This document shows positions 4,448 through 14,244 of a stretch of 34,661 bases of DNA, one piece after another (the stretch's first letter is position 1; every line of letters begins with the position of its first letter). Both the position numbers and the translations under genes were made by a program. Origin of the DNA: a virus (lineage: Duplodnaviria; Caudoviricetes); IMG/VR virus record IMGVR_UViG_3300049472_000056, positions 1 to 34,661 of that record; one strand, 5' to 3'. The notes beneath the pieces were generated by a model. That model had not been told where the DNA came from and searched no databases. It saw nothing but the letters and a program-made list of their open reading frames with translations.

Positions 4448-5218
4448 TCAGCCGTCTTCCCTAAGTTGGTAATCGTGAGTCATAACTGGACCGCCAAGGA
4501 TTCGCCAAGCTGCGGCGGCACAGAGGGGGACTTGGCCGTTTCCAATTGCCTTACACTGGTCCATTTGATTGGCCAAAGCATCAATTCCTCGCTCACTGTC
4601 GGGTTCAGAAGTCTGCCGAATCGCCTCGCTAGAAACTCTGATAAGTTCCCGTCTCCATGATTCCTCCGAATCAACGATTTGAGTTTGAACCTTAATCTTT
4701 TCCCGTCCGACGCTGTTGGTGTCATAAGCAAGTAACCACCATCTTGCGCGGCGATGCGCCCCCCCCCACACGTCGGAAGCGCCCAGCTCTGTCCATTCCG
4801 CATCGTACCCGCGCAAGGCCAAGTCTGCGAGAACGTATCCAAGCCCCCGTCCAACAATCTCTGGGCTGTTTTCCAAGAAGAGGTATTTAGGTCTAACCTC
4901 GTCAATGGCTCTAATTGCTTCACTGTACAATCCAGAACGTTCTCCTTTGATGCCAGTTGATGGGCCGCAAACTGCAATGTCCGTGCAAGGGAACCCCGCA
5001 TGGATGCAATCCACGCGTCCTTTGTATGGACGGAAATCGACTGATCTGATATCACCCTCAATGACTTCAAGGCCAGGGAGCCATCCATCTGCTGCCCGCT
5101 CCCGCAAGACTCGGCAAGCGTAGTTATCCCATTCGACGGCGACGATTGGGGTATGTCCAAGAATGAGGTCTGCAAGTAATCCACCGCCTGCTCCTGCAAA
5201 TAAATGCATGGTTCGCAT
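4448..5218 (-). CDS. DNA cytosine-5 methyltransferase, alpha-like polypeptide
   Basis: Motifs I (HLFAGAGG), IV (GFPC), VI (ENS), VIII (HRRARW) and X (AIGNGQ) are present; motif IX is not evident in this frame. Confidence 0.9.
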   Translation of the reverse strand: MRTMHLFAGAGGGLLADLILGHTPIVAVEWDNYACRVLRERAADGWLPGLEVIEGDIRSVDFRPYKGRVDCIHAGFPCTDIAVCGPSTGIKGERSGLYSEAIRAIDEVRPKYLFLENSPEIVGRGLGYVLADLALRGYDAEWTELGASDVWGGAHRRARWWLLAYDTNSVGREKIKVQTQIVDSEESWRRELIRVSSEAIRQTSEPDSERGIDALANQMDQCKAIGNGQVPLCAAAAWRILGGPVMTHDYQLREDG

Positions 5219-5223
5219 GTCAC
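4480..5223 (-). CDS. Out-of-frame overlapping ORF, putative methyltransferase beta polypeptide (TRD/motif IX)
   Basis: 247-aa ORF overlapping almost the whole MTase gene; carries TPTASDG and RLLNPTVSEELMLWP..WT; its GTG overlaps the upstream TGA. Confidence 0.7.
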   Translation of the reverse strand: MTCEPCIYLQEQAVDYLQTSFLDIPQSSPSNGITTLAESCGSGQQMDGSLALKSLRVISDQSISVHTKDAWIASMRGSLARTLQFAAHQLASKENVLDCTVKQLEPLTRLDLNTSSWKTAQRLLDGGLDTFSQTWPCAGTMRNGQSWALPTCGGGRIAAQDGGYLLMTPTASDGKRLRFKLKSLIRRNHGDGNLSEFLARRFGRLLNPTVSEELMLWPIKWTSVRQLETAKSPSVPPQLGESLAVQL

Positions 5224-5369
5224 TTCCCACCCCTCAAAATATCCCGTGCAACCTCAACGGCAACCGCAACAGCAGTGACAACCAACCCAATCAGCAGCAC
5301 CCAAGCCCAGAAGCCGGATTGGCCCTGATGCGCGACAGTGGCGGTGGTGGAGGCGAGGAGGTGGGTCAT
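5220..5369 (-). CDS. Small single-pass membrane protein
   Basis: FWAWVLLIGLVVTAVAVAV hydrophobic helix; stop coupled to the next gene. Confidence 0.55.
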   Translation of the reverse strand: MTHLLASTTATVAHQGQSGFWAWVLLIGLVVTAVAVAVEVARDILRGGK

Positions 5370-5605: not shown

Positions 5606-5955
5606 AATTCTATCACTTTGCCGTTACGTACTTCGCGGAAGGTGTACAAATCGCCATATAGCGATAGGAATAGCTTCAGCTTTATTTCGTAAACCGGTGT
5701 TCGCATGCCCTTCACGTCCTCAATGATCCACTTGCACTTCTCTTTATATTGAAAGTCCGCCACGTAATGAATGGCGCGGATACCCTTGCCGTGGTAGCGG
5801 AACTTCTCTAGTAGAACGAACTTTGGTTGCAGCGTTAACTCGCTGATCTTACCGGCCTTCTCTGAGAGAATCAGGGCCATATACCGCTGTGACTCAGCCT
5901 TACTGTCGAACTTCACACTACCAATGGTGGTTGGCTTGGCATTATACTTATGCAT
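5602..5955 (-). CDS. DUF1064-family PD-(D/E)XK nuclease (putative Holliday junction resolvase)
   Basis: KYNAK...FDSKAE...LQPKF...YVADFQY...IEDVKG.RT.VY.IK.KL. Confidence 0.88.
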   Translation of the reverse strand: MHKYNAKPTTIGSVKFDSKAESQRYMALILSEKAGKISELTLQPKFVLLEKFRYHGKGIRAIHYVADFQYKEKCKWIIEDVKGMRTPVYEIKLKLFLSLYGDLYTFREVRNGKVIEL

Positions 5956-5992
5956 TACAGCCGCCCCAATTCCAGCAACTTCCGCTCAACTC

Positions 5993-6024
5993 TGTGCATC
6001 TCCTCATCAGGGGGGAGATGCACA
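5993..6024. other. 11-bp perfect stem-loop in the leader of the leftward operon
   Basis: TGTGCATCTCC-10 nt-GGAGATGCACA. Confidence 0.55.
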
Positions 6025-6079
6025 CATAGGTGGGGACGGTGTTGTGCATAGAGCGTTTCCCAAGTGGTGCGATAGGCGG

Positions 6080-6107
6080 ACAGTAGTCAAGTGCATGCAG
6101 GTGTCAA
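6080..6107 (-). promoter_or_regulatory. Leftward early promoter
   Basis: Minus strand TTGACA-16 bp-TACTGT. Confidence 0.65.
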
Positions 6108-6114
6108 GTGCCTA

Positions 6115-6142
6115 TTGTCAACTGACCAATCGGCGCTAGGCT
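6115..6142 (+). promoter_or_regulatory. Rightward early promoter (leaderless transcript)
   Basis: TTGTCA-16 bp-TAGGCT, with 6 nt to the ATG at 6149. Confidence 0.6.
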
Positions 6143-6148
6143 ATTGCC

Positions 6149-6316
6149 ATGAATATCAAAAAATCTTTCACTGATTCTGGCCTCTCACTAGCACGGCTAG
6201 CACGTCTATCTGGCCTGTCTAAGTCTACCGTTCAGCGGTGTATTCGCCACAACCGACTGCCGCAAAATGCTGAAAGCCGCTGTCTTTTCCGTGAAGCACT
6301 GGGGGTCAAGGGGTAG
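6149..6316 (+). CDS. Cro/XRE-like HTH regulator (55 aa, below ORF-track cutoff)
   Basis: Manual translation MNIKKSFTDSGLSLARLARLSGLSKSTVQRCIRHNRLPQNAESRCLFREALGVKG shows a classic XRE HTH. Confidence 0.8.
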   Translation: MNIKKSFTDSGLSLARLARLSGLSKSTVQRCIRHNRLPQNAESRCLFREALGVKG

Positions 6317-6386
6317 GGCTGGAGATTGTTGTTGACTATGGTCAGATGACGCTATTGTCTGCCCATCCCCCACCCAAGGCCCGCAA

Positions 6387-6818
6387 ATGACCACCTCCAT
6401 CGACCAACGCACCGAAGCCCTCAACGCCGCCACCGTCCTCTTCACCGAGGACCACAGCCTGGTCGAAGCGCTCAAGGCGTTGCAGTCCGGCAAGTGGACG
6501 TTCATCCCCGACAAGGCCTACGGCTCGCTTGCCCCGGCGCTCGACACCACGGAGCACCTTGCCGACCTGGCAGACGAGGCGTGGAACGTAACGGAGCTGT
6601 GCAACGCCGCCGGACTGACCGCACTGGCCGGTCTGGCAAAGCGTCTGGATCAGTCGATCCGCAAGGTGCTGGTCGATCCCCGGACCGTGCGCGATTCGCT
6701 GGCTGGCTTCTCGATGCTGACCACCGACGCACGCATCACGCTGGACGCTGAGGAGGACAACCAGGAGCTTCTTCAGGCGCTGGTCGATCAGGCGATGCCG
6801 GTTGGAGCGGTGGCATGA
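6387..6818 (+). CDS. Hypothetical protein
   Basis: 143-aa ORF with strong GC3 bias and ATGA overlap with the next gene. Confidence 0.8.
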   Translation: MTTSIDQRTEALNAATVLFTEDHSLVEALKALQSGKWTFIPDKAYGSLAPALDTTEHLADLADEAWNVTELCNAAGLTALAGLAKRLDQSIRKVLVDPRTVRDSLAGFSMLTTDARITLDAEEDNQELLQALVDQAMPVGAVA

Positions 6819-7102
6819 GCCGGCACACACTAGGCCCGTGGAGCATAGCCGGATTCGTGGATGGAAACATCCGCATAGCAGACAGCCGTGACGTTGGCAT
6901 CGCATATGTGCGCGGCGAATACGCGATCCCAGGCATGAGCGCGGCCAATTGCCGCCTCATCGCATCGGCCCCTGAGCTTCTGGAGGCGCTGAAGGAATTA
7001 ATGAGATGGGTTCCAAGTGAAACTTTTTGGCACACCAAAGCGCCGTTAGAGGCAATTAAACGAGCCCGCACCGCCATCACCAAAGCCGAAAGCGCATCAT
7101 GA
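6815..7102 (+). CDS. Conserved phage hypothetical protein
   Basis: HTxGPW...ANxRLIAxAPELLEAL motif is widespread in phage early regions. Confidence 0.85.
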   Translation: MSRHTLGPWSIAGFVDGNIRIADSRDVGIAYVRGEYAIPGMSAANCRLIASAPELLEALKELMRWVPSETFWHTKAPLEAIKRARTAITKAESAS

Positions 7103-7413
7103 GCGACCAAACAACCCCCAAAGCAAAATCAGTTCGCGTCTTAGTAGACGCTAAGATCGTGGCCGACTTAAACACTTGGCGAACCAGCCGATCATCCATG
7201 GAAGACTTTGCAAAGCAGATAGAGGAAGATGCTCGCGAGTTCGTACAGCACTGCCGGGACCATCGCTCCATCGATCATATCGGGCTTGAGGTCGAGCGAA
7301 TCTATGAAACTCAATGCTCCTCCTGCCGCCGTGAATTGGAGACGGTCCAGGATCCGGAACTAAACGAAGGCCGAAAGTCGTGCGCCTACTGCGGCGCGGA
7401 GATGGAATCATGA
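7099..7413 (+). CDS. Hypothetical protein with C-terminal Zn ribbon
   Basis: CSSC...CAYCG; ATGA overlaps. Confidence 0.75.
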   Translation: MSDQTTPKAKSVRVLVDAKIVADLNTWRTSRSSMEDFAKQIEEDAREFVQHCRDHRSIDHIGLEVERIYETQCSSCRRELETVQDPELNEGRKSCAYCGAEMES

Positions 7414-7772
7414 ACATCGACTACTCCGACGAGAGCACCCAGATCATGGCCATAGAAGACGACCACGACCACCTCCGCGACAACTGCGAACGCGTCGCAA
7501 TCGAGCGTGAGGCAAAGCACGACTACGATCCAACGCCGATCCTCACTATGAACGCCACGCCAACCCTGAACTGGGATCTGATCCTCGACTGGTGCCTACT
7601 GCTTATCGTCAGCGGTTCGTTCGTCCTGACCATGATGCTGTGCGGTATCTGTATCCAGGCGTGGCTTGAACTGGAAGGTTCCGGCCTGATCGCATGTGGC
7701 GTCTGTGCGGTCCTAAGTGCTGCGGTCTGTGGTGTTGCTGGGTCGGTTACGGTTAAGCGCGAACTTAAATAA
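7410..7772 (+). CDS. Membrane protein (2 TM)
   Basis: Acidic N-terminus then two hydrophobic helices; ATGA overlap. Confidence 0.7.
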   Translation: MNIDYSDESTQIMAIEDDHDHLRDNCERVAIEREAKHDYDPTPILTMNATPTLNWDLILDWCLLLIVSGSFVLTMMLCGICIQAWLELEGSGLIACGVCAVLSAAVCGVAGSVTVKRELK

Positions 7773-7802
7773 ACAATGCCCGAATGGGCGGAAGGAAGCA
7801 CA

Positions 7803-8112
7803 ATGAGCACTGACATCAAGGCAAATACCCTTACTCTCAATGGCGTTGAATACGTCAGAAAGGATTCTGTCGAAGCTAATAGTAAGCCCATTGGAGAATT
7901 GCGGATCATTATCGCTGATCGCGGCTGGGTGTTTGTTGGAAAATGCGTTACCAACAGTGATGGGACGGTAACTATCCGTAACGCGAAGAACATTCGCAAA
8001 TGGGGCACATCAAAGGGCCTGGGCGAGCTAATCAATGGGCCTCTGAGCGAAACCAAAGCGGATCCTTACGGGACCGTTCGCTGCACGCCTATCGCTGAAA
8101 TCGGGGTGGTAA

Positions 8113-8123
<11 letters not shown>
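7803..8123 (+). CDS. Conserved phage protein (DUF6948-like, Sm-like beta fold)
   Basis: IIIADRGWVFVG...NAKNIRKWGTSKGLGELINGP; family recognised from memory only. Confidence 0.7.
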
Positions 8124-8430
<307 letters not shown>

Positions 8431-8464
8431 CAATTTAAGCCGGGGGCTCAAACCCGGCACATAT

Positions 8465-8515
8465 GGGGGATTGGTGACACGCCATTAGCCGTTGCAAATC
8501 CGGTTACCCCCGCCA
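8465..8515 (+). ncRNA. Degenerate minimal tRNA-like structure
   Basis: GGGGG...CCCCC-G-CCA acceptor-like ends, T-arm-like GCCGT-TGCAAAT-CCGGT and one small hairpin; no full cloverleaf. Confidence 0.35.
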
Positions 8516-8556
8516 AAGCCCCTGACCAGGGCAAAAATCACGGTCACAGGGATACC

Positions 8557-9357
8557 ATGATCATTAAAAACCAGCCAGCAGAAGAATACCACGCGCACCC
8601 AGCGATTGGCAGCACAACGGCAAAGCTCGCATTGAAAAGCATGCAGCTCTTCCGGGATCGCCAGACAGGGGTCTACGCGGTAGAGGATAAGGCCCACTTC
8701 CAAGTTGGACGCTTGGCCCACATGATGCTCCTGGAACCTGCCCGGTTCGCTGAGTGCGTAACCACCAGCGGACCTATCAATGAGCGCACCGGTGCGCCGT
8801 ACGGACGGGACACCAAGGCTTACGCAGAATGGCAGAAGGCCAATCCCGGCCTAACCGTTGTCGATCCATGGCTCCACACCGCATTCCTGCGCATGCCGGA
8901 AGAGGTTCGCACCGTGCTCAAGGGCGGCGAAACGGAAGTTTCAGCCTACCAGGAGATTGACGGGCTCCCGGTCAAGTGCCGGTCCGATCACCTGCGCGGA
9001 ACCGTTATCACTGATCTGAAGACCATTAAGGACGTAGACGACTGGCCACGAGAGATCCGCCGCCGTGCTTACTGGTTTAGCGCGGCATGGTACCGGCGCG
9101 TGATGCTTGCCGAAACCGGAAAGCCGCACTCGTTCCGCCTGATCTTTATGGAAAAGAACGCTCCTTGGCGGTGGCGCATCGTGGATCTTATGGCGGATTA
9201 CTCGCTATATGGTGACGCGAAGGTGGAGCGGGTCATGTCCGACATCCGATATGCGAACAAATACCAGGACTGGAGCGACACTGGGGACGTGATGCAGATT
9301 GCCGAGCTTCCCGAGTTTATGGACGAGAGCGACGACGAAGAAGAGGAGGTAGCTTAA
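8557..9357 (+). CDS. RecE/exonuclease VIII-like PD-(D/E)XK nuclease (DUF3799-like)
   Basis: EEYHAHPAIGST...GRLAHMMLLEP...KCRSD...ITDLKT...Y..SAAWY...F.LIFMEK.AP; acidic tail. Confidence 0.88.
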   Translation: MIIKNQPAEEYHAHPAIGSTTAKLALKSMQLFRDRQTGVYAVEDKAHFQVGRLAHMMLLEPARFAECVTTSGPINERTGAPYGRDTKAYAEWQKANPGLTVVDPWLHTAFLRMPEEVRTVLKGGETEVSAYQEIDGLPVKCRSDHLRGTVITDLKTIKDVDDWPREIRRRAYWFSAAWYRRVMLAETGKPHSFRLIFMEKNAPWRWRIVDLMADYSLYGDAKVERVMSDIRYANKYQDWSDTGDVMQIAELPEFMDESDDEEEEVA

Positions 9358-9359
9358 TC

Positions 9360-9773
9360 ATGCAACACTACAAAGAGCTCCTTGACCCCGGTGTCTTTGT
9401 CGGACCCCAGGACTTTACAACGGACAAGACCATTACCATCAGCCGAGTGGTACGCGAGGACATGCCCAAGCGCGATGGTGAAGACAAGACCAGCTCGCCC
9501 ATGATGTACTTCTCGCATGCTGGCACCGAATTGCCACGCAAGTACAAGGTGCCAAAGTCGGTTCTTTACGGGCTTTCGTTACTTTACGGTACCGACATTG
9601 ATCAGTGGGTTGGTAAGAAAGTGACTCTGTTCGCGGCCAAGTGCATGAGCTTTGGCGAGGTGGAAGAGTGTGTGCGCATCCGCTTTCCTGATGATATTGA
9701 TGCCAAGATATTTAAATGGCTGAAGAAACGGAAGTCCAACCGTTCAGCTTACATTCTCAAGGAAACGGCATGA
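9360..9773 (+). CDS. Putative ssDNA-binding/annealing partner of the exonuclease
   Basis: Directly downstream of the RecE-like gene; TITISRV...LYGTDIDQWVGKKVTLF pattern; function inferred from context. Confidence 0.55.
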   Translation: MQHYKELLDPGVFVGPQDFTTDKTITISRVVREDMPKRDGEDKTSSPMMYFSHAGTELPRKYKVPKSVLYGLSLLYGTDIDQWVGKKVTLFAAKCMSFGEVEECVRIRFPDDIDAKIFKWLKKRKSNRSAYILKETA

Positions 9774-9973
9774 CCTACACCTGCCGCTGCGAATCCTGCC
9801 TAAAACCCGCCAAGCAATGCGGCCCGCTGAAGATCCACACAGGACTAGGCGCGGCGGTGTGCCTGGTGTGTCTGCCGAAACCAAACGCGCAACGTATCCA
9901 GGAAGCGCATGTGGCTGAACGGTCGTTGGGGCATAGTTCTTATCGTCGCCAGCAGCGTCAGGCGGTTGCGTGA
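9770..9973 (+). CDS. Small Zn-finger protein
   Basis: CRCESC...CLVC; AAGGA RBS and ATGA overlap. Confidence 0.65.
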   Translation: MTYTCRCESCLKPAKQCGPLKIHTGLGAAVCLVCLPKPNAQRIQEAHVAERSLGHSSYRRQQRQAVA

Positions 9974-9980
9974 TGATGCT

Positions 9981-10074
9981 GCTCAACGTCACCGATCACC
10001 GGGCCGCCGACAAGGAAACCCCATGAACGACGAAAACCACACGACGGCGGCTCCGGTGCGTCGTCTTGTTGGGC
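9981..10074 (-). other. attC-like site A (94 bp)
   Basis: Minus strand: GCCCAAC-AAGAC-GAC(G)CACCGG(A)GCCGCCG...CGGCGGC-CCGGTGATC-GGTGAC-GTTGAGC, i.e. R''/L''/L'/R' with 5/6-nt spacers and two extrahelical bases. Confidence 0.85.
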
Positions 10075-11030
10075 CAGGGATGGAGCGAGGGCAAATGCTA
10101 TCTATCGAACAGGCGATAGACGCCGCTGGCAAAATGAGCCTGCGATCCTTGGCGCAGATATCCATCGTAACCAGCCTATGCCACCACCTGCGAGAGTCAG
10201 GGAAAACCGTGTCACGCCAGAGGAAGCAGCTAGCAGGCCTACAACGTGACCGCAGTATGACATGCAACAACTGCCGTGGCCAGATGCTGCGCAGCCAGAT
10301 CCATATCAACGTCACGACCTGCGCGAAATGTGGAATGCGGCATGTGTGGCCCAACGCCCAGGGGTCACTGGACGCGCCAGTTGATCAATCCGCAGGCAAT
10401 CAAGGTGATACGCGTTCCAGTGTATCACCTTGTTGGGCCATTGCCTTGCTGTCAGCTCTCCTGGCAGGAGCGCCAGGCAGTGTCTTCGCTGGCACCGGAC
10501 AGCAGGACGCCTTTAGTGCGGTTCGCGCCACGGGCCACGTCGTAGGTGTACCACTGGCTGGACCAGTGGCAGGCGCACGCGGCCTCACGGGCAGCGCGGA
10601 CGCCCGCGAACAGGACCGGCTTGCCGGCGTGCGGGCCGTCTTGGTAGCAGATCACGCCGCCAGTGTTGTCGGCGCAGCCGCTTCCGCAGATCGTGACCGT
10701 CTGGTCACCGATCACTGCCGAGGCGTAGGCGCCCAGGCCGTTACTGCCGAGGACGCGGGCGACGTACAGCCCGGCTGGCCGGCCACCCTTGGCTCCGTTC
10801 GCGGCGCTGGTCTTGGCCTTCTTGGCGGTCTTGATTTTACCCAGGGCGACGGCGGCGGGGTTCTTCTTGGTCTGGCTCACGACAGGCTCCTTGCAGCGTT
10901 GCTGCGTTGGTGTTGTGATGGGAACCCTAACCAAGCGTTAGGTTTGTCAATTGGATTCCTGGGGCACGCGGGTTTGCGGACCAACGCCAAAGATAACCGG
11001 GCGGCACAAGAGATAAATCCCCATGAGTAA
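10023..11030 (+). CDS. Cassette A ORF: Zn-ribbon protein (first ~110 aa), frame stays open through cassette B
   Basis: AAGGA RBS and ATG inside the attC A loop; CNNC...CAKC; the part beyond about 10440 is antisense to another gene and may be non-functional readthrough. Confidence 0.55.
   Translation: MNDENHTTAAPVRRLVGPGMERGQMLSIEQAIDAAGKMSLRSLAQISIVTSLCHHLRESGKTVSRQRKQLAGLQRDRSMTCNNCRGQMLRSQIHINVTTCAKCGMRHVWPNAQGSLDAPVDQSAGNQGDTRSSVSPCWAIALLSALLAGAPGSVFAGTGQQDAFSAVRATGHVVGVPLAGPVAGARGLTGSADAREQDRLAGVRAVLVADHAASVVGAAASADRDRLVTDHCRGVGAQAVTAEDAGDVQPGWPATLGSVRGAGLGLLGGLDFTQGDGGGVLLGLAHDRLLAALLRWCCDGNPNQALGLSIGFLGHAGLRTNAKDNRAAQEINPHE
10349..10438 (-). other. attC-like site B (90 bp)
   Basis: Plus strand: GCCCAAC-GCCCAGG-GGTCACTGGACGCG...CGCGT(T)CCAGTG(T)ATC-ACCTT-GTTGGGC. 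Confidence 0.82.
10452..10880 (-). CDS. Cassette B gene: basic N-terminal KNPAAVALG...NGAKGGRP motif protein (putative DNA-binding)
   Basis: AAGGAG RBS 7 nt before GTG at 10880; the stop lies 13 nt before the R'' box of attC B, which is the canonical cassette layout. Confidence 0.75.
   Translation of the reverse strand: MSQTKKNPAAVALGKIKTAKKAKTSAANGAKGGRPAGLYVARVLGSNGLGAYASAVIGDQTVTICGSGCADNTGGVICYQDGPHAGKPVLFAGVRAAREAACACHWSSQWYTYDVARGANRTKGVLLSGASEDTAWRSCQES
10924..10950 (-). promoter_or_regulatory. Cassette-internal promoter with palindromic operator
   Basis: TTGACA-15 bp-TAGGGT with CCTAAC-N5-GTTAGG overlapping the spacer and -10. Confidence 0.55.
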
Positions 11031-11068
11031 ACTATCGATTGCCGCTCCGGTTAATCACCTTGTTGGGC
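10979..11068 (-). other. attC-like site C (90 bp)
   Basis: Plus strand: GACCAAC-GCCAAA-GATAACCGGGCGGCA...TGCCGC(T)CCGGTT(A)ATC-ACCTT-GTTGGGC. Confidence 0.85.
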
Positions 11069-11099
11069 TGCGTTTAATTTAACCACGAAGGAATGAAAT

Positions 11100-11489
11100 A
11101 TGGAAAATGAGCACGTCAATTTCAGAGCTATGTGGGCGGAAGCTCACAAAGCCGAAAGATCACAGCGGGAGGAATGGAATAAATTAACCGACTGGGTTCG
11201 ATTGATCGATTATGATTTAATCAGAGGAGCTAGGTTTCTTGTCCGTTTACCAGGGCAATTACCACACATGGCCTACAGAGATTTATTCGGATATTGGGGG
11301 ATTGTATCTGGAGACATCTGGCCATTAAGGGTGACTGATGAGCACCAATTACATTTTATTGATCAGCAGCCCAACGCACCAGTTGACTGGACCGGCGCCA
11401 GCGACTCAACCCACAAACCGAAAGACGTTGCCGCCGGTTCCACGTCAAACGCCTTGTTGGGCGGATTTAATGTCGAGGAGAAGCCGTGA
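11100..11489 (+). CDS. Cassette C ORF, hypothetical; reads through attC D
   Basis: AAGGA RBS; visibly AT-richer than flanks; C-terminal ~35 aa encoded by attC D. Confidence 0.7.
   Translation: MENEHVNFRAMWAEAHKAERSQREEWNKLTDWVRLIDYDLIRGARFLVRLPGQLPHMAYRDLFGYWGIVSGDIWPLRVTDEHQLHFIDQQPNAPVDWTGASDSTHKPKDVAAGSTSNALLGGFNVEEKP
11369..11462 (-). other. attC-like site D (94 bp)
   Basis: Plus strand: GCCCAAC-GCACCA-GTTGACTGGACCGGCG...CGCCGGT(T)CCA(C)GTC(A)AAC-GCCTT-GTTGGGC. Confidence 0.85.
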
Positions 11490-11809
11490 TGTCCTTTCTG
11501 GAAATACATGCATCTGATTCCCTGGAAAAGTGGAATGCGCAAATGTCAGAATTGATCGATAGCGGCGTGTTTGGCGAACACAGGCCCAACGACTGCCTAT
11601 TTTGTCGAGCGCAGAGGATTGTGGAGTTAATACAGGATTTGAGAGATAAGATGCATCCGCCCAACAGCTCAATGGGTGGATCCGGTAATATCACGTCGGA
11701 TGTGGATCCGACGCATATCACGCAGCAGACCCCTGGAAACACCGGTGATTCCAGCCATACATCCGGTGGATTGCGACAGGGTACGAATATTGCGCGGGGC
11801 GAATCGTGA
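11486..11809 (+). CDS. Cassette D ORF, hypothetical (CxxC); reads through the attI-like site
   Basis: GAGGAG RBS, overlap with the upstream stop, CLFC motif. Confidence 0.65.
   Translation: MMSFLEIHASDSLEKWNAQMSELIDSGVFGEHRPNDCLFCRAQRIVELIQDLRDKMHPPNSSMGGSGNITSDVDPTHITQQTPGNTGDSSHTSGGLRQGTNIARGES
11659..11722 (-). other. attI-like site
   Basis: Minus strand ACCCATT-GAGCT-GTTGGGC (degenerate L box, 5-nt spacer, R box), preceded by two direct repeats GTGGATCCG-N3/4-ATATCACG. Confidence 0.55.
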
Positions 11810-12075
11810 CCGACGCCTGCCCCTCCTGCGGTGTCCCCTACGTCGATCACCTCGGCCTGATCGGCACCTGCGCCGATCTGCTGGCCGCGCGGCGCGAGCT
11901 GCTGCGGCTGCAGGCTGGCCCGGTGGTCGTGCTTCCGGCTGATCTTGCCGACGCCTACGTGGTGGCGGTGCGGGTCCTCGAATTCCGCTGCGGTGGTGCC
12001 AGCGACGGCGACCAGGTGGCCCGCGAGCGTCAGGCGCTGGCGGCGGTGCAGAAGGCTGCGCATGCGGCGGGCTGA
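11806..12075 (+). CDS. Hypothetical phage protein (CxxC...H...C)
   Basis: CPSCGVPYVDHLGLIGTC; GTGA overlap; high GC3. Confidence 0.7.
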   Translation: MTDACPSCGVPYVDHLGLIGTCADLLAARRELLRLQAGPVVVLPADLADAYVVAVRVLEFRCGGASDGDQVARERQALAAVQKAAHAAG

Positions 12076-12180
12076 CGATGGCGACCTAATCGCCGGACTC
12101 CGTGCGATATGGCCCTGGCGTGTTTTCGATAGGCCTAGGGATATTGTGCGGTTGTTGTTGTGGCGGTTGCGGGCTGGGGA

Positions 12181-14244
12181 TTAGGGGATGGCAATAGTGA
12201 CCCGAGATTCGATCGTTGACCAGACCTGTGCTTGCGGTGCCAGCCAGATTCCCAGATGCGTATTCAGGCTGTCCTCGCCTACTCCTGTATTGGCCGCTGC
12301 CATGCGGTGAATGACGAATTCTGCCTGGTCAATTGCAGCGTCTTCGCGCCACGGGCGCGAGCCGCTGGCCAAGTTGTTTGCTTGGAAATGCGATTTTCGC
12401 GAAACGGGCTTGCCGCTGTCCCAGCCAGGGAGCTGCACCCGCCAGCGGTAACCGGCCACGCTGGCCCACGCGGCGCAATACGCCGGCGTCCCGCTGACGG
12501 TCGACGCTACGCCGGTGACCTGCCAGGGTTCAGTTGATGCGGCCACGTAATCGCACACCCAGGTGCCAGATAGCGTCGGCTGCGAAGAGGCGCGGAACAG
12601 ATAATCCCCCTTCGACCAACCGAAGTGGTCGACCGGGACTGCATCCGCGCTCGATGGCAGCAGATGCTGTTTCGGCGCATCGAACGGGTAGACCCGAGGC
12701 AGGCATGGGGTTGGCAGCAGAAAGTTGAAGGCGCCCCCGATTCCGCGCGAAGAATAGAGAAATTGCCAGGCATCGAATGACGTGGCCGGTGCTACTTTCC
12801 TGCGGCTCAAAAGCTGATAGCGCATGCCAGGAATAGCGGGGATGCTGGTAGGCACAGGGATCGACAGGGACACGCCTGGTCCTGCACCGCCGGGGAGAGA
12901 TCCCGCAACCGGCGTCGTAATCGGGACCAATCCCACGCCAGCGTCGAAATATCCCCAGCACACCTCAAAGTCCGTTGCCTCGTTTGCCGGCGCCCAATAA
13001 ACGTCTTGCGCCACTGCCTGGTCAAGCTCGTAAAAACACGGGATAGGGCGCGGTATCTGTATGTTGAAAGTCGGGTCAGCGTCCCATCGCGAGGTCGCAA
13101 AAAACGCATGTAAAAACCCGGCACAGGCGCCGTCTTCTCGCCACGCCGTTTCATACCTGGACGCGCCGGATAGCCCGGTGATCTGATACCCTGCTGTGGG
13201 AACTCGCCGGGATGCGGCGCGAACGTATCCGGCCGCCGGAGCTGATCCAGCCGCCGTCCGTCGCGTGAGGAGCGGAATGGCGCGGCGGTTGACGAAGAGG
13301 CCTGCATTCGGCGCTGCTGCGGCGCAGGATTCAGACGTATAGACGACCCGTTGATTGCCAATCGGAGCGGGAAAATCGACATCGAACGCGAAGTCCGCAA
13401 AAGGCGCATCAGCCTCTAAAACAGCGGCCAGGACGTACGATATCTTGCTGAGGTCGCGATCTTCCCACGACGCAATTCGTTTCCAGCGATGCGAGGCGCT
13501 GGTCGATCCGCCCACGGCGTATTTGGTGAGCCTGGCATAGGCACTTCCGATCAGCCCCGCGACGGCATCCGTTGGGGTCATCTGTCCGCTACTGGTGCCG
13601 CCAAAGCTGACCTGGAAATCAATCGCGATTCCCGTCGTCGAGTCGACGTTGACGCGCACGACCTTGCCAAACACCGGGTACGACTCGCTTCCGACCAGGT
13701 AATACCAGGGGAGTGCCACCGGTGCGATGGTCGACCTGTCCGCAGAAAAAGCGATCAGCGGCGCAGTCTGCGGCAGCGCCGTCAAAAGATTTGCTTGCGA
13801 ACCGGGCCATGTTGCAAATGGGTAGGTCACTAAATCATCATCAAAACCAGATGCGAGCGAACTCGATACCGGCATCAGCGAAGGCAAATCATGGACCGCT
13901 GGCCCGTAGCGATAGGGCCGATTGATCAGGCCAACCGGAGACCCCGGGGCGGCAGACGTTTTGATTTTTCCGCCGGCATTGCCGATCCACAGGCCCGCTG
14001 CTGAATAGGACGTCACACCGGGAATTGCTGCAGGCGTCTCGTTGATTCTGCGATCCGGCACGAAGAGCGTATTGACCGAGTGATCAAAGCTCCGGCCATT
14101 GTACCCGGGGGCCGGTGCGCGCTCGACGAGATAGCCCGAGTCGAAACGAGAGCCCCCAAACTCCATCCCTGGCGGTGTCCAAAGGATTAAATCCGTCGTC
14201 CAGCCGCCCCAAAAGGTATTGAATGTCGTGGTCTCGAATGCCAT
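12181..14244 (-). CDS. Putative tail tip/receptor-binding protein
   Basis: Last gene of the late operon; 687 aa, beta-rich and rich in Trp/Pro/Gly. Confidence 0.55.
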   Translation of the reverse strand: MAFETTTFNTFWGGWTTDLILWTPPGMEFGGSRFDSGYLVERAPAPGYNGRSFDHSVNTLFVPDRRINETPAAIPGVTSYSAAGLWIGNAGGKIKTSAAPGSPVGLINRPYRYGPAVHDLPSLMPVSSSLASGFDDDLVTYPFATWPGSQANLLTALPQTAPLIAFSADRSTIAPVALPWYYLVGSESYPVFGKVVRVNVDSTTGIAIDFQVSFGGTSSGQMTPTDAVAGLIGSAYARLTKYAVGGSTSASHRWKRIASWEDRDLSKISYVLAAVLEADAPFADFAFDVDFPAPIGNQRVVYTSESCAAAAPNAGLFVNRRAIPLLTRRTAAGSAPAAGYVRAASRRVPTAGYQITGLSGASRYETAWREDGACAGFLHAFFATSRWDADPTFNIQIPRPIPCFYELDQAVAQDVYWAPANEATDFEVCWGYFDAGVGLVPITTPVAGSLPGGAGPGVSLSIPVPTSIPAIPGMRYQLLSRRKVAPATSFDAWQFLYSSRGIGGAFNFLLPTPCLPRVYPFDAPKQHLLPSSADAVPVDHFGWSKGDYLFRASSQPTLSGTWVCDYVAASTEPWQVTGVASTVSGTPAYCAAWASVAGYRWRVQLPGWDSGKPVSRKSHFQANNLASGSRPWREDAAIDQAEFVIHRMAAANTGVGEDSLNTHLGIWLAPQAQVWSTIESRVTIAIP

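Follow-up and report, generated by a model that had tools for sequence, protein, structure and literature searches.

Phage genomes are known to carry clusters of attC sites lacking an integrase (CALINs). The available text of Qi et al. (2023; PMC9892861) describes 17 of them, recombination with IntI1 at G|TT for five of six tested phage attC sites, and a Shewanella prophage CALIN that begins with an attI. Here, we analyze a similar array in a tailed-phage record (Duplodnaviria; Caudoviricetes), IMG/VR IMGVR_UViG_3300049472_000056; the window is the whole linear virus record of 34,661 bp. We favor, with a probability of about 0.78, the reading that this is an integrase-less cassette array, comprising four attC-bounded cassettes (A–D) and a likely attI (site E) in a phage early operon, filled by IntI acting in trans. 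The array is real and follows mostly ordinary integron logic in a phage; it fits a CALIN and fails as a complete integron. Its unusual part is an inverted, frame-locked gene layout, not the footprint of circular intermediates that the original prediction had seen in it.

In the usage of Qi et al., CALINs are defined by at least two attC sites within 3 kb and no integrase, and this locus contains four sites in 1.5 kb. Like the phage CALINs in the text of PMC9892861, it combines at least two attC sites with small open reading frames (ORFs) in a phage and has no intI. Unlike what that text describes, its genes are inverted relative to attC, a fixed frame runs across the crossover, start codons lie in attC loops, and the cassette ends are tested for pairing. 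The sites also belong to a family seen in Planctomycetota, unlike those of the phage CALINs in the available text. The closest bacterial systems are sedentary integrons in a Planctomycetota metagenome-assembled genome (MAG; BJHQ01000008.1 and BJHQ01000022.1), which share the attC family (attC A is 75% identical over about 93 bp), a similar attI start (13/16) and the same end pairing to 11 bp. They differ in that IntI adjoins attI and in having dozens of mostly longer cassettes with top-strand genes. Classical bacterial cassette genes read from Pc at attI, whereas three of the four genes here point towards attI.

The four attC sites and their cut points

A covariance model finds exactly four attC sites in the record (Table 1). 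The model was built from 22 related sites of other genomes, which were fetched with patterns derived from this family, so that the search was not blind. The four sites score 50.6–75.6 bits on the + strand and 8–17 bits on the − strand, and the next, unrelated match in the record reaches 11.8 bits. The paired positions of the model covary, with 14 pairs changed on both sides (0 of 500 shuffles). The sites are 90–94 bp long, within the 57–141 bp range of attC sites, and contain AAC...GTT cores and paired L boxes. A grammar detector scores A, B, and C at 13–13.5, a level of one match per 20 simulated genomes, and D at only 9. The central spacers measure 6 and 5 nt per arm in A, C, and D, and 7 and 5 nt in B, where 5–6 nt is expected; one 7-nt spacer is also present in another virus record (L002).

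According to the attC rule, extrahelical bases lie on one strand, 6 bp apart, and the last one is a T (PMC5027507, in the passages available). All four sites have strand-specific extrahelical bases. They lie on the + strand in A, B (T, T), and C, with A and C in the canonical register, and D carries one more bulged base. The + strand is therefore the recombining bottom strand, cut at AA|C. The AA|C points fall at 9987, 10355, 10985, 11375, and 11665, and units measured from one to the next are exactly 368, 630, 390, and 290 bp, the sizes given in the original prediction. That prediction began its window at 10068; attC A actually starts at 9981. An assignment of + as the top strand, with the cut at G|TT on +, gave units of 364, 630, and 394 bp and made A and E look degenerate; it was dropped after a complete attC A came to light and the extra bases proved to lie on +.

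Two side observations concern site structure. The hairpin that competes with the recombinogenic fold of attC B is a perfect 11-bp one (10401–10432) and may lock the site. Separately, positions 9880–9935, inside ORF 9770–9973, contain an AAC, an attC-like right arm, and a GTT that could be an eroded fifth attC. This candidate scores only 4.5 and is missed by the covariance model, so it remains uncounted.

Pairing between cassette ends

The right end of each attC site is complementary to the left flank of the following site. All four complementarities quoted in the original prediction are present: 11/11 for D-right with E-left, 10/10 for C-right with D-left, 9/9 for A-right with B-left, and 7/8 for B-right with C-left. 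As perfect runs across the unit, these amount to 9 (A), 5 (B), 10 (C), and 11 bp (D), compared with 4, 9, 5, and 7 bp, respectively, within the integrated site. The prediction that ends pair better across a unit than with their own arms is thus correct for A, C, and D but not for B. In circular form, R'' is expected to pair with the cassette's own R', and it does so over 9, 10, and 11 bp in A, C, and D and over only 5 bp in B. The folding comparison suggested with the prediction gave the same split: on the + strand the circle is more stable by 6.2 (A), 5.2 (C), and 5.5 kcal/mol (D), and 3.4 kcal/mol less stable for B.

In the shuffling comparison suggested with the prediction, run within the window, the summed run of 35 is equaled or exceeded by 2 of 120 permutations, but the match count over positions 4–12 by 5 of 120. 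When 63 distinct left flanks taken from other arrays of this attC family serve as the comparison, the joint P is 0.0011. Foreign flanks that match as well number 1 of 63 for A, 49 for B, none for C, and 4 for D; the D/E 11-mer thus owes something to a flank that is common in the family. B-left is complementary at 9/9 to A-right and to B-right alike and so does not discriminate between them. The C-left flank carries a mismatch, and a single substitution there would explain the broken run of B, though not why the match ends at position 8. The GC contrast noted in the prediction is confirmed: the inner part of B is high (0.663) and that of C low (0.423) relative to the genome (0.573), and both are extreme, since similarly sized windows of the genome range from 0.423 to 0.665. 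Unit B is odd in every respect.

The same pairing occurs in other arrays. We compared 39 bacterial units (three records from two genomes, 34 of the units from one genome) after dropping two units containing N and one exact duplicate; one further repeated cassette left the set through the N filter. The phage or prophage set held 19 units from 10 records, and three prophage units (L038) were counted there, not as bacterial. Pairing across the unit exceeded pairing with the own arm in 27 of the 39 bacterial units, with 10 ties and two reversals (sign test P = 1.6 × 10−6), and in 12 of the 19 phage or prophage units, with five ties and two reversals (P = 0.013). In both sets the match rate lies above a random-partner baseline to position 11 and near it at positions 12–14; at positions 8–11 the bacterial rates are 0.85, 0.77, 0.64, and 0.54, compared with a baseline of 0.29–0.39.

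Because bacterial chromosomal arrays pair in the same way, the footprint is not special to this phage. Published definitions of a cassette rest on its circular form (PMC2674596 and PMC5371416, in the passages available), and end pairing is an already known property of integron cassettes. It shows that the two ends of each unit are a matched pair; it does not show circle formation in this phage. The proposed footprint of circular intermediates thus stands insofar as the units are cassettes cut at AA|C, and falls insofar as the pairing is general in the family and fails for B. The accessible passages of PMC2674596, PMC5371416, PMC5027507, and PMC3053210 describe a 7-bp R box, whereas pairing here extends to about 11 bp. 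This extension did not appear in our literature search, which left subscription journals and the cassette papers of the 1990s mostly out of reach.

Exchange of partners at the predicted cut

Protein relatives of the cassette genes change partner at the predicted cut. This comparison was ungapped and at the protein level, and it resolves the boundary to a codon. P0005 is identical to gene C at 87 of 92 positions before the Pro-Asn at the cut and at 1 of 28 after it, and its tail is similar to those that two other phages have at their terminal sites (10/18 and 8/18); it would represent gene C placed directly at an attI-type site, without cassette D. Conversely, P0006 matches at 2 of 47 positions before the cut and 27 of 31 after it, as if attC D stood behind another gene. 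P0003 resembles gene D before the cut (40/59) and has a different tail (5/36) that, by eye, ends like an attC right arm. The fourth relative, P0002, keeps the order of this phage, with gene D at 46/59 and an E-type tail at 14/35.

Because three of the four relatives switch at the left AAC codon, the boundary lies where the strand assignment places it, and the original prediction that these units are integron cassettes cut at AA|C (G|TT) is supported to the codon. Its suggestion to look the cassettes up in other contexts succeeded for proteins and failed for DNA, with no DNA relatives of the cassette genes in viral or metagenome contigs. A pattern search for attC D returned eight metagenome loci, none with an attC site and none with a BLAST match to the array.

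Site E, a likely attI

The last site, E, differs from the others in having a single AAC core: it has no partner GTT arm, no attC match by the covariance model, and an imperfect direct repeat 26–27 nt apart. The 16 bases after its AAC match two Planctomycetota MAG sites at 13/16 and 11/16. Both of those sites lie between the last cassette and IntI at the ends of attC arrays, adjoining TIGR02249 integrases that score above the cut-off. Site E matches 32 attC arms at 6/16 at most, and no other one among the 899 AAC sites in the window reaches 12/16 to the Planctomycetota attI. By position and likeness, site E is likely an attI. Arrays of other phages end in comparable single-AAC sites that pair over 8–12 bp with the last attC; these pairings are best-partner picks and were left out of the tallies above. 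A search with an E-like pattern found one known locus and two identical loci without attC. No sigma-70-type site was found in 5900–12300, where Pc was looked for with a scan limited to that promoter type.

An inverted, frame-locked gene layout

Three genes (A, C, and D) follow their own attC on the + (bottom) strand and point towards attI; gene B alone has the usual polarity. A bacterial cassette usually, though not invariably, has its gene upstream of attC on the top strand, and genes A, C, and D depart from this rule. At the cut, all three read through CCC AAC (Pro-Asn) in one frame, and their tail and stop codon come from the next site. The arrangement recurs in other phages: of 19 other phage units, 17 keep the Pro-Asn frame open for 60% of their length or more, compared with 1 of 39 bacterial units (Fisher P = 1.5 × 10−11). 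The two phage units without this open frame are both in L066. Among the bacterial units, 32 of 39 are open over at least 60% of their length on the top strand. The original prediction had passed over the attI-like last site, the inversion of three genes relative to bacterial cassettes, and the lack of a detectable integrase in the record. We found no paper on inverted, frame-locked phage cassettes in a search that left most subscription journals and the 1990s cassette papers out of reach, which makes this weak evidence of novelty.

Gene A starts within attC A; there, a 17-codon ORF running into the site in the same frame ends in a stop that overlaps the gene A start. The body of gene A, up to the Pro-Asn at 10355, has relatives among phage-type small proteins (with a CxxC C-terminal half), and both halves have relatives among such proteins with and without an attC-type tail. 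The frame (335 codons) continues through attC B and along the antisense strand of gene B. Gene B has no family, Atlas, or useful genome match. A TTGACA and a 9-bp inverted repeat (10923–10945) lie upstream of it, below the scan threshold, and may serve gene B as promoter and operator. Across unit B the + strand also has an open frame; it was considered as a second gene and is read instead as an antisense shadow of gene B, which has no TTA, CTA, or TCA among its 143 codons. The stop of gene D overlaps the start of ORF 11806–12075.

Two further observations come from related arrays. Judged by eye, related cassette genes starting with MIAALFVE occur in two different virus records (L002, 3132–3866, and L013, 3506–3886, both on −), one with a long internal deletion, and are a cassette shared between phages. 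L013 also contains (1237–1800, −) a relative of the N-terminal half of gene A (26/63 identical). It leads into a left arm of attC type that has a ribosome site and an ATG; there is no right arm, and the locus is a half-eroded cassette junction.

Table 1. Coordinates and properties of the array features in the window
Feature	Position	Strand	Remarks
attC A	9981..10074	− (top strand −, recombining bottom strand +)	75.6 bits; canonical register, extra bases C, T
Cassette A	9987..10354		368 bp; attC A and gene A; farthest from attI
Gene A	10023..11030	+	ATG 10023 and AAGGA 10012–10016 in attC A loop; no stop until 11030
attC B	10349..10438	−	50.6 bits, weakest site; 7-nt spacer on one arm; competing hairpin
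Cassette B	10355..10984		630 bp; GC 0.65
Gene B	10452..10880	−	142 amino acids (aa); bacterial cassette orientation; third-position GC (GC3) 0.86; AAGGAG before GTG
attC C	10979..11068	−	66.9 bits; canonical register, extra bases A, T
Cassette C	10985..11374		390 bp; GC 0.45
Gene C	11100..11489	+	129 aa; body to Pro-Asn at 11375, tail from attC D; stop overlaps gene D start
attC D	11369..11462	−	68.5 bits; one additional bulged base
Cassette D	11375..11664		290 bp; adjoins attI-like site
Gene D	11486..11809	+	106–107 aa; body to Pro-Asn at 11665, tail from attI region
Site E	11659..11725 (right limit approximate)	−	likely attI; crossover AA|C at 11664/11665

Integrase, host, and related arrays

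Neither PF00589 nor TIGR02249 matches the record (rated 45% complete), so the intI gene of a complete integron was not detected. A PF00589 match is likewise missing from eight of the 10 virus records with such sites, among them all three with a completeness of at least 90%. In one record (G009; L006/L047, 960–1945), an integron integrase (TIGR02249, 317.7 bits) directly follows the terminal site, starting about 50 bases behind it. Another locus (L038; CAZZJC010000002.1, 202861–210946) is a prophage with terminase and SSB genes in a Planctomycetota-labelled MAG (Ca. Kuenenia). Four attC sites and a terminal attI-type site are present there, together with inverted genes, immediately ahead of the terminase gene. 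Genomes labelled Microcystis and Fibrobacterota have related single sites, and there is an array in Acidobacteria; in a set of 17 loci, nine have no site by the detector. A Planctomycetota host is plausible. The Planctomycetota chromosomal integron at BJHQ01000008.1 (36476–62078; L031–L042) has more than 30 cassettes, two of them present twice, and its IntI open frames of 465–476 aa are longer at the N-terminus than the 315-position model.

We propose that IntI of the host, or of a co-infecting phage, acts in trans and would fill the array one cassette at a time. A cut at AA|C would leave each cassette with its own two ends. Cassettes would be excised as circles and enter at E, making D the newest and A the oldest, with the source of IntI external to the phage. 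In the circle, the outer arm of attC would pair with bases at the other end of the cassette; in the array it would face the end of its neighbor. Xer-type sites have about 11 bp per arm, and the 11-bp pairing likely corresponds to the length of duplex gripped by the recombinase. Genes A, C, and D are opposite to the bacterial cassette strand, so an early promoter of the phage itself, upstream of them, likely drives their transcription. Cassette B would be the exception, with its bacterial orientation and possible own promoter. Since each tail and stop is borrowed from the following attC or attI, reshuffling would swap tails and keep bodies intact.

Alternative explanations

Several results weigh against an array filled in trans. 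The host is unproven, and the integrase of G009, divided between ORFs of 97 and 238 aa, may be broken. The partner switches are known at the protein level only, as no DNA was found for P0002, P0003, P0005, or P0006. No circle, deletion joint, or variant was seen in the contigs of one run, and contigs do not address rare circles. No cassette of the phage turned up in 401 Planctomycetota genomes, where the matches were limited to attC A and short GC-rich pieces. Site E matches the terminal sites of four other phages at only 8, 5, 5, and 1 of 16 bases. Unit B pairs 9/9 with its own arm and over 5 bp across the unit, and attC B is aberrant too. Finally, the comparison arrays were fetched with patterns from these sites, so that the first 7 bp are fixed, and the bacterial tallies draw heavily on one genome (34/39). 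Some of these observations would suit a frozen array, assembled by IntI in an ancestor or on another replicon, acquired as a block by homologous recombination, and now inactive. The record has no IntI or other tyrosine recombinase, attC B is aberrant, the C-left flank is mismatched, no variant joints appear in the contigs of that run, and P0002 keeps the order of gene D and an E-type tail at 46/59 identity. Yet P0005, at 87/92 to gene C, has another tail from the cut on, which argues for a fairly recent change at the site; A, C, and D also retain high attC scores, A and C in the canonical register. We consider a frozen array unlikely.

More improbable still is shuffling without any IntI, in which the phage's recombination proteins (the exonuclease VIII-like gene product and its neighbor) act through microhomology at the cores and the hairpins are linkers for translation coupling. 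The array does lie directly behind those genes, its sites are protein-coding with start and stop signals, and most virus records with such sites (8 of 10, all three at least 90% complete ones included) have no PF00589 match. Extra bases in the register of IntI, end pairing to 11 bp, and an attI-like site at the predicted end would then be left unexplained, and P0006 takes the whole of attC D from AAC on, not a hybrid. We give hardly any weight to the idea that the pairing is luck, the ends sharing a 7-bp consensus with two to four extra matches by chance. There are just four units, one of them contrary, and both the permuted match counts (5/120) and the foreign flanks that equal the D/E 11-mer (4/63) leave some room for chance; the family-flank test and the tallies from other arrays (joint P = 0.0011; sign tests P = 1.6 × 10−6 in bacteria and 0.013 in phages) largely refute it.

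Genomic setting and other features of the record

The record encodes a lambda-type terminase, portal, S49 protease, major head protein, replication initiator, HNH nuclease, C5 methyltransferase, and exonuclease VIII-like protein. The array closes a rightward row of early genes, directly behind the exonuclease VIII-like gene (8557–9357) and its neighbor and directly before converging tail genes. Searches with genes 9360–9773 and 8557–9357 found no close phage relative, only two loci at 29–30%; 50,697 phage records gave no useful match, and Rfam returned nothing relevant.

Both record ends (1 and 34661) coincide exactly with the ends of two contigs of the one public run that holds the stretch (X1, labelled freshwater sediment metagenome, possibly the source of the record; contigs only), and the right end lies 46 bases before the small terminase gene. 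The ends are possibly cos-type physical ends, and the record may be complete despite its CheckV completeness of 45%; the hint is weak and non-independent. A tract of hexamer repeats (8113–8430) encodes a 105-aa ORF of Gly-Tyr, Gly-Asp, and Gly-Asn repeats that overlaps the end of ORF 7776–8123. The C5 DNA methyltransferase ORF (4448–5230, −; 260 aa) contains a second frame of nearly full length on the same strand (4480–5223; 247 aa).

Implications

The layout matters more than the footprint. The footprint itself matters little, although it offers a handy check of strand and boundaries, and pairing to about 11 bp, bacteria included, is a simple constraint on the circular form. It is tempting to speculate, though we doubt it more than we believe it, that phages of this group build their own cassettes from small early genes, as a mirror image of the host's, and run them with borrowed IntI. 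On that view, the Pro-Asn frame and the start and stop signals within attC would form a plug-in grammar that keeps reshuffled genes translated while their tails are swapped. Cassette birth has been called largely unknown (PMC5371416, in the passages available), and the free and cassette forms of the gene A family could show how a cassette is born. Cassettes could also pass between host arrays and phages, where they would be silent or antisense unless they have their own promoter, as B may have. If phages keep an attI and backwards cassettes and borrow the host integrase, an enzyme of host adaptation would also diversify the host's phages.

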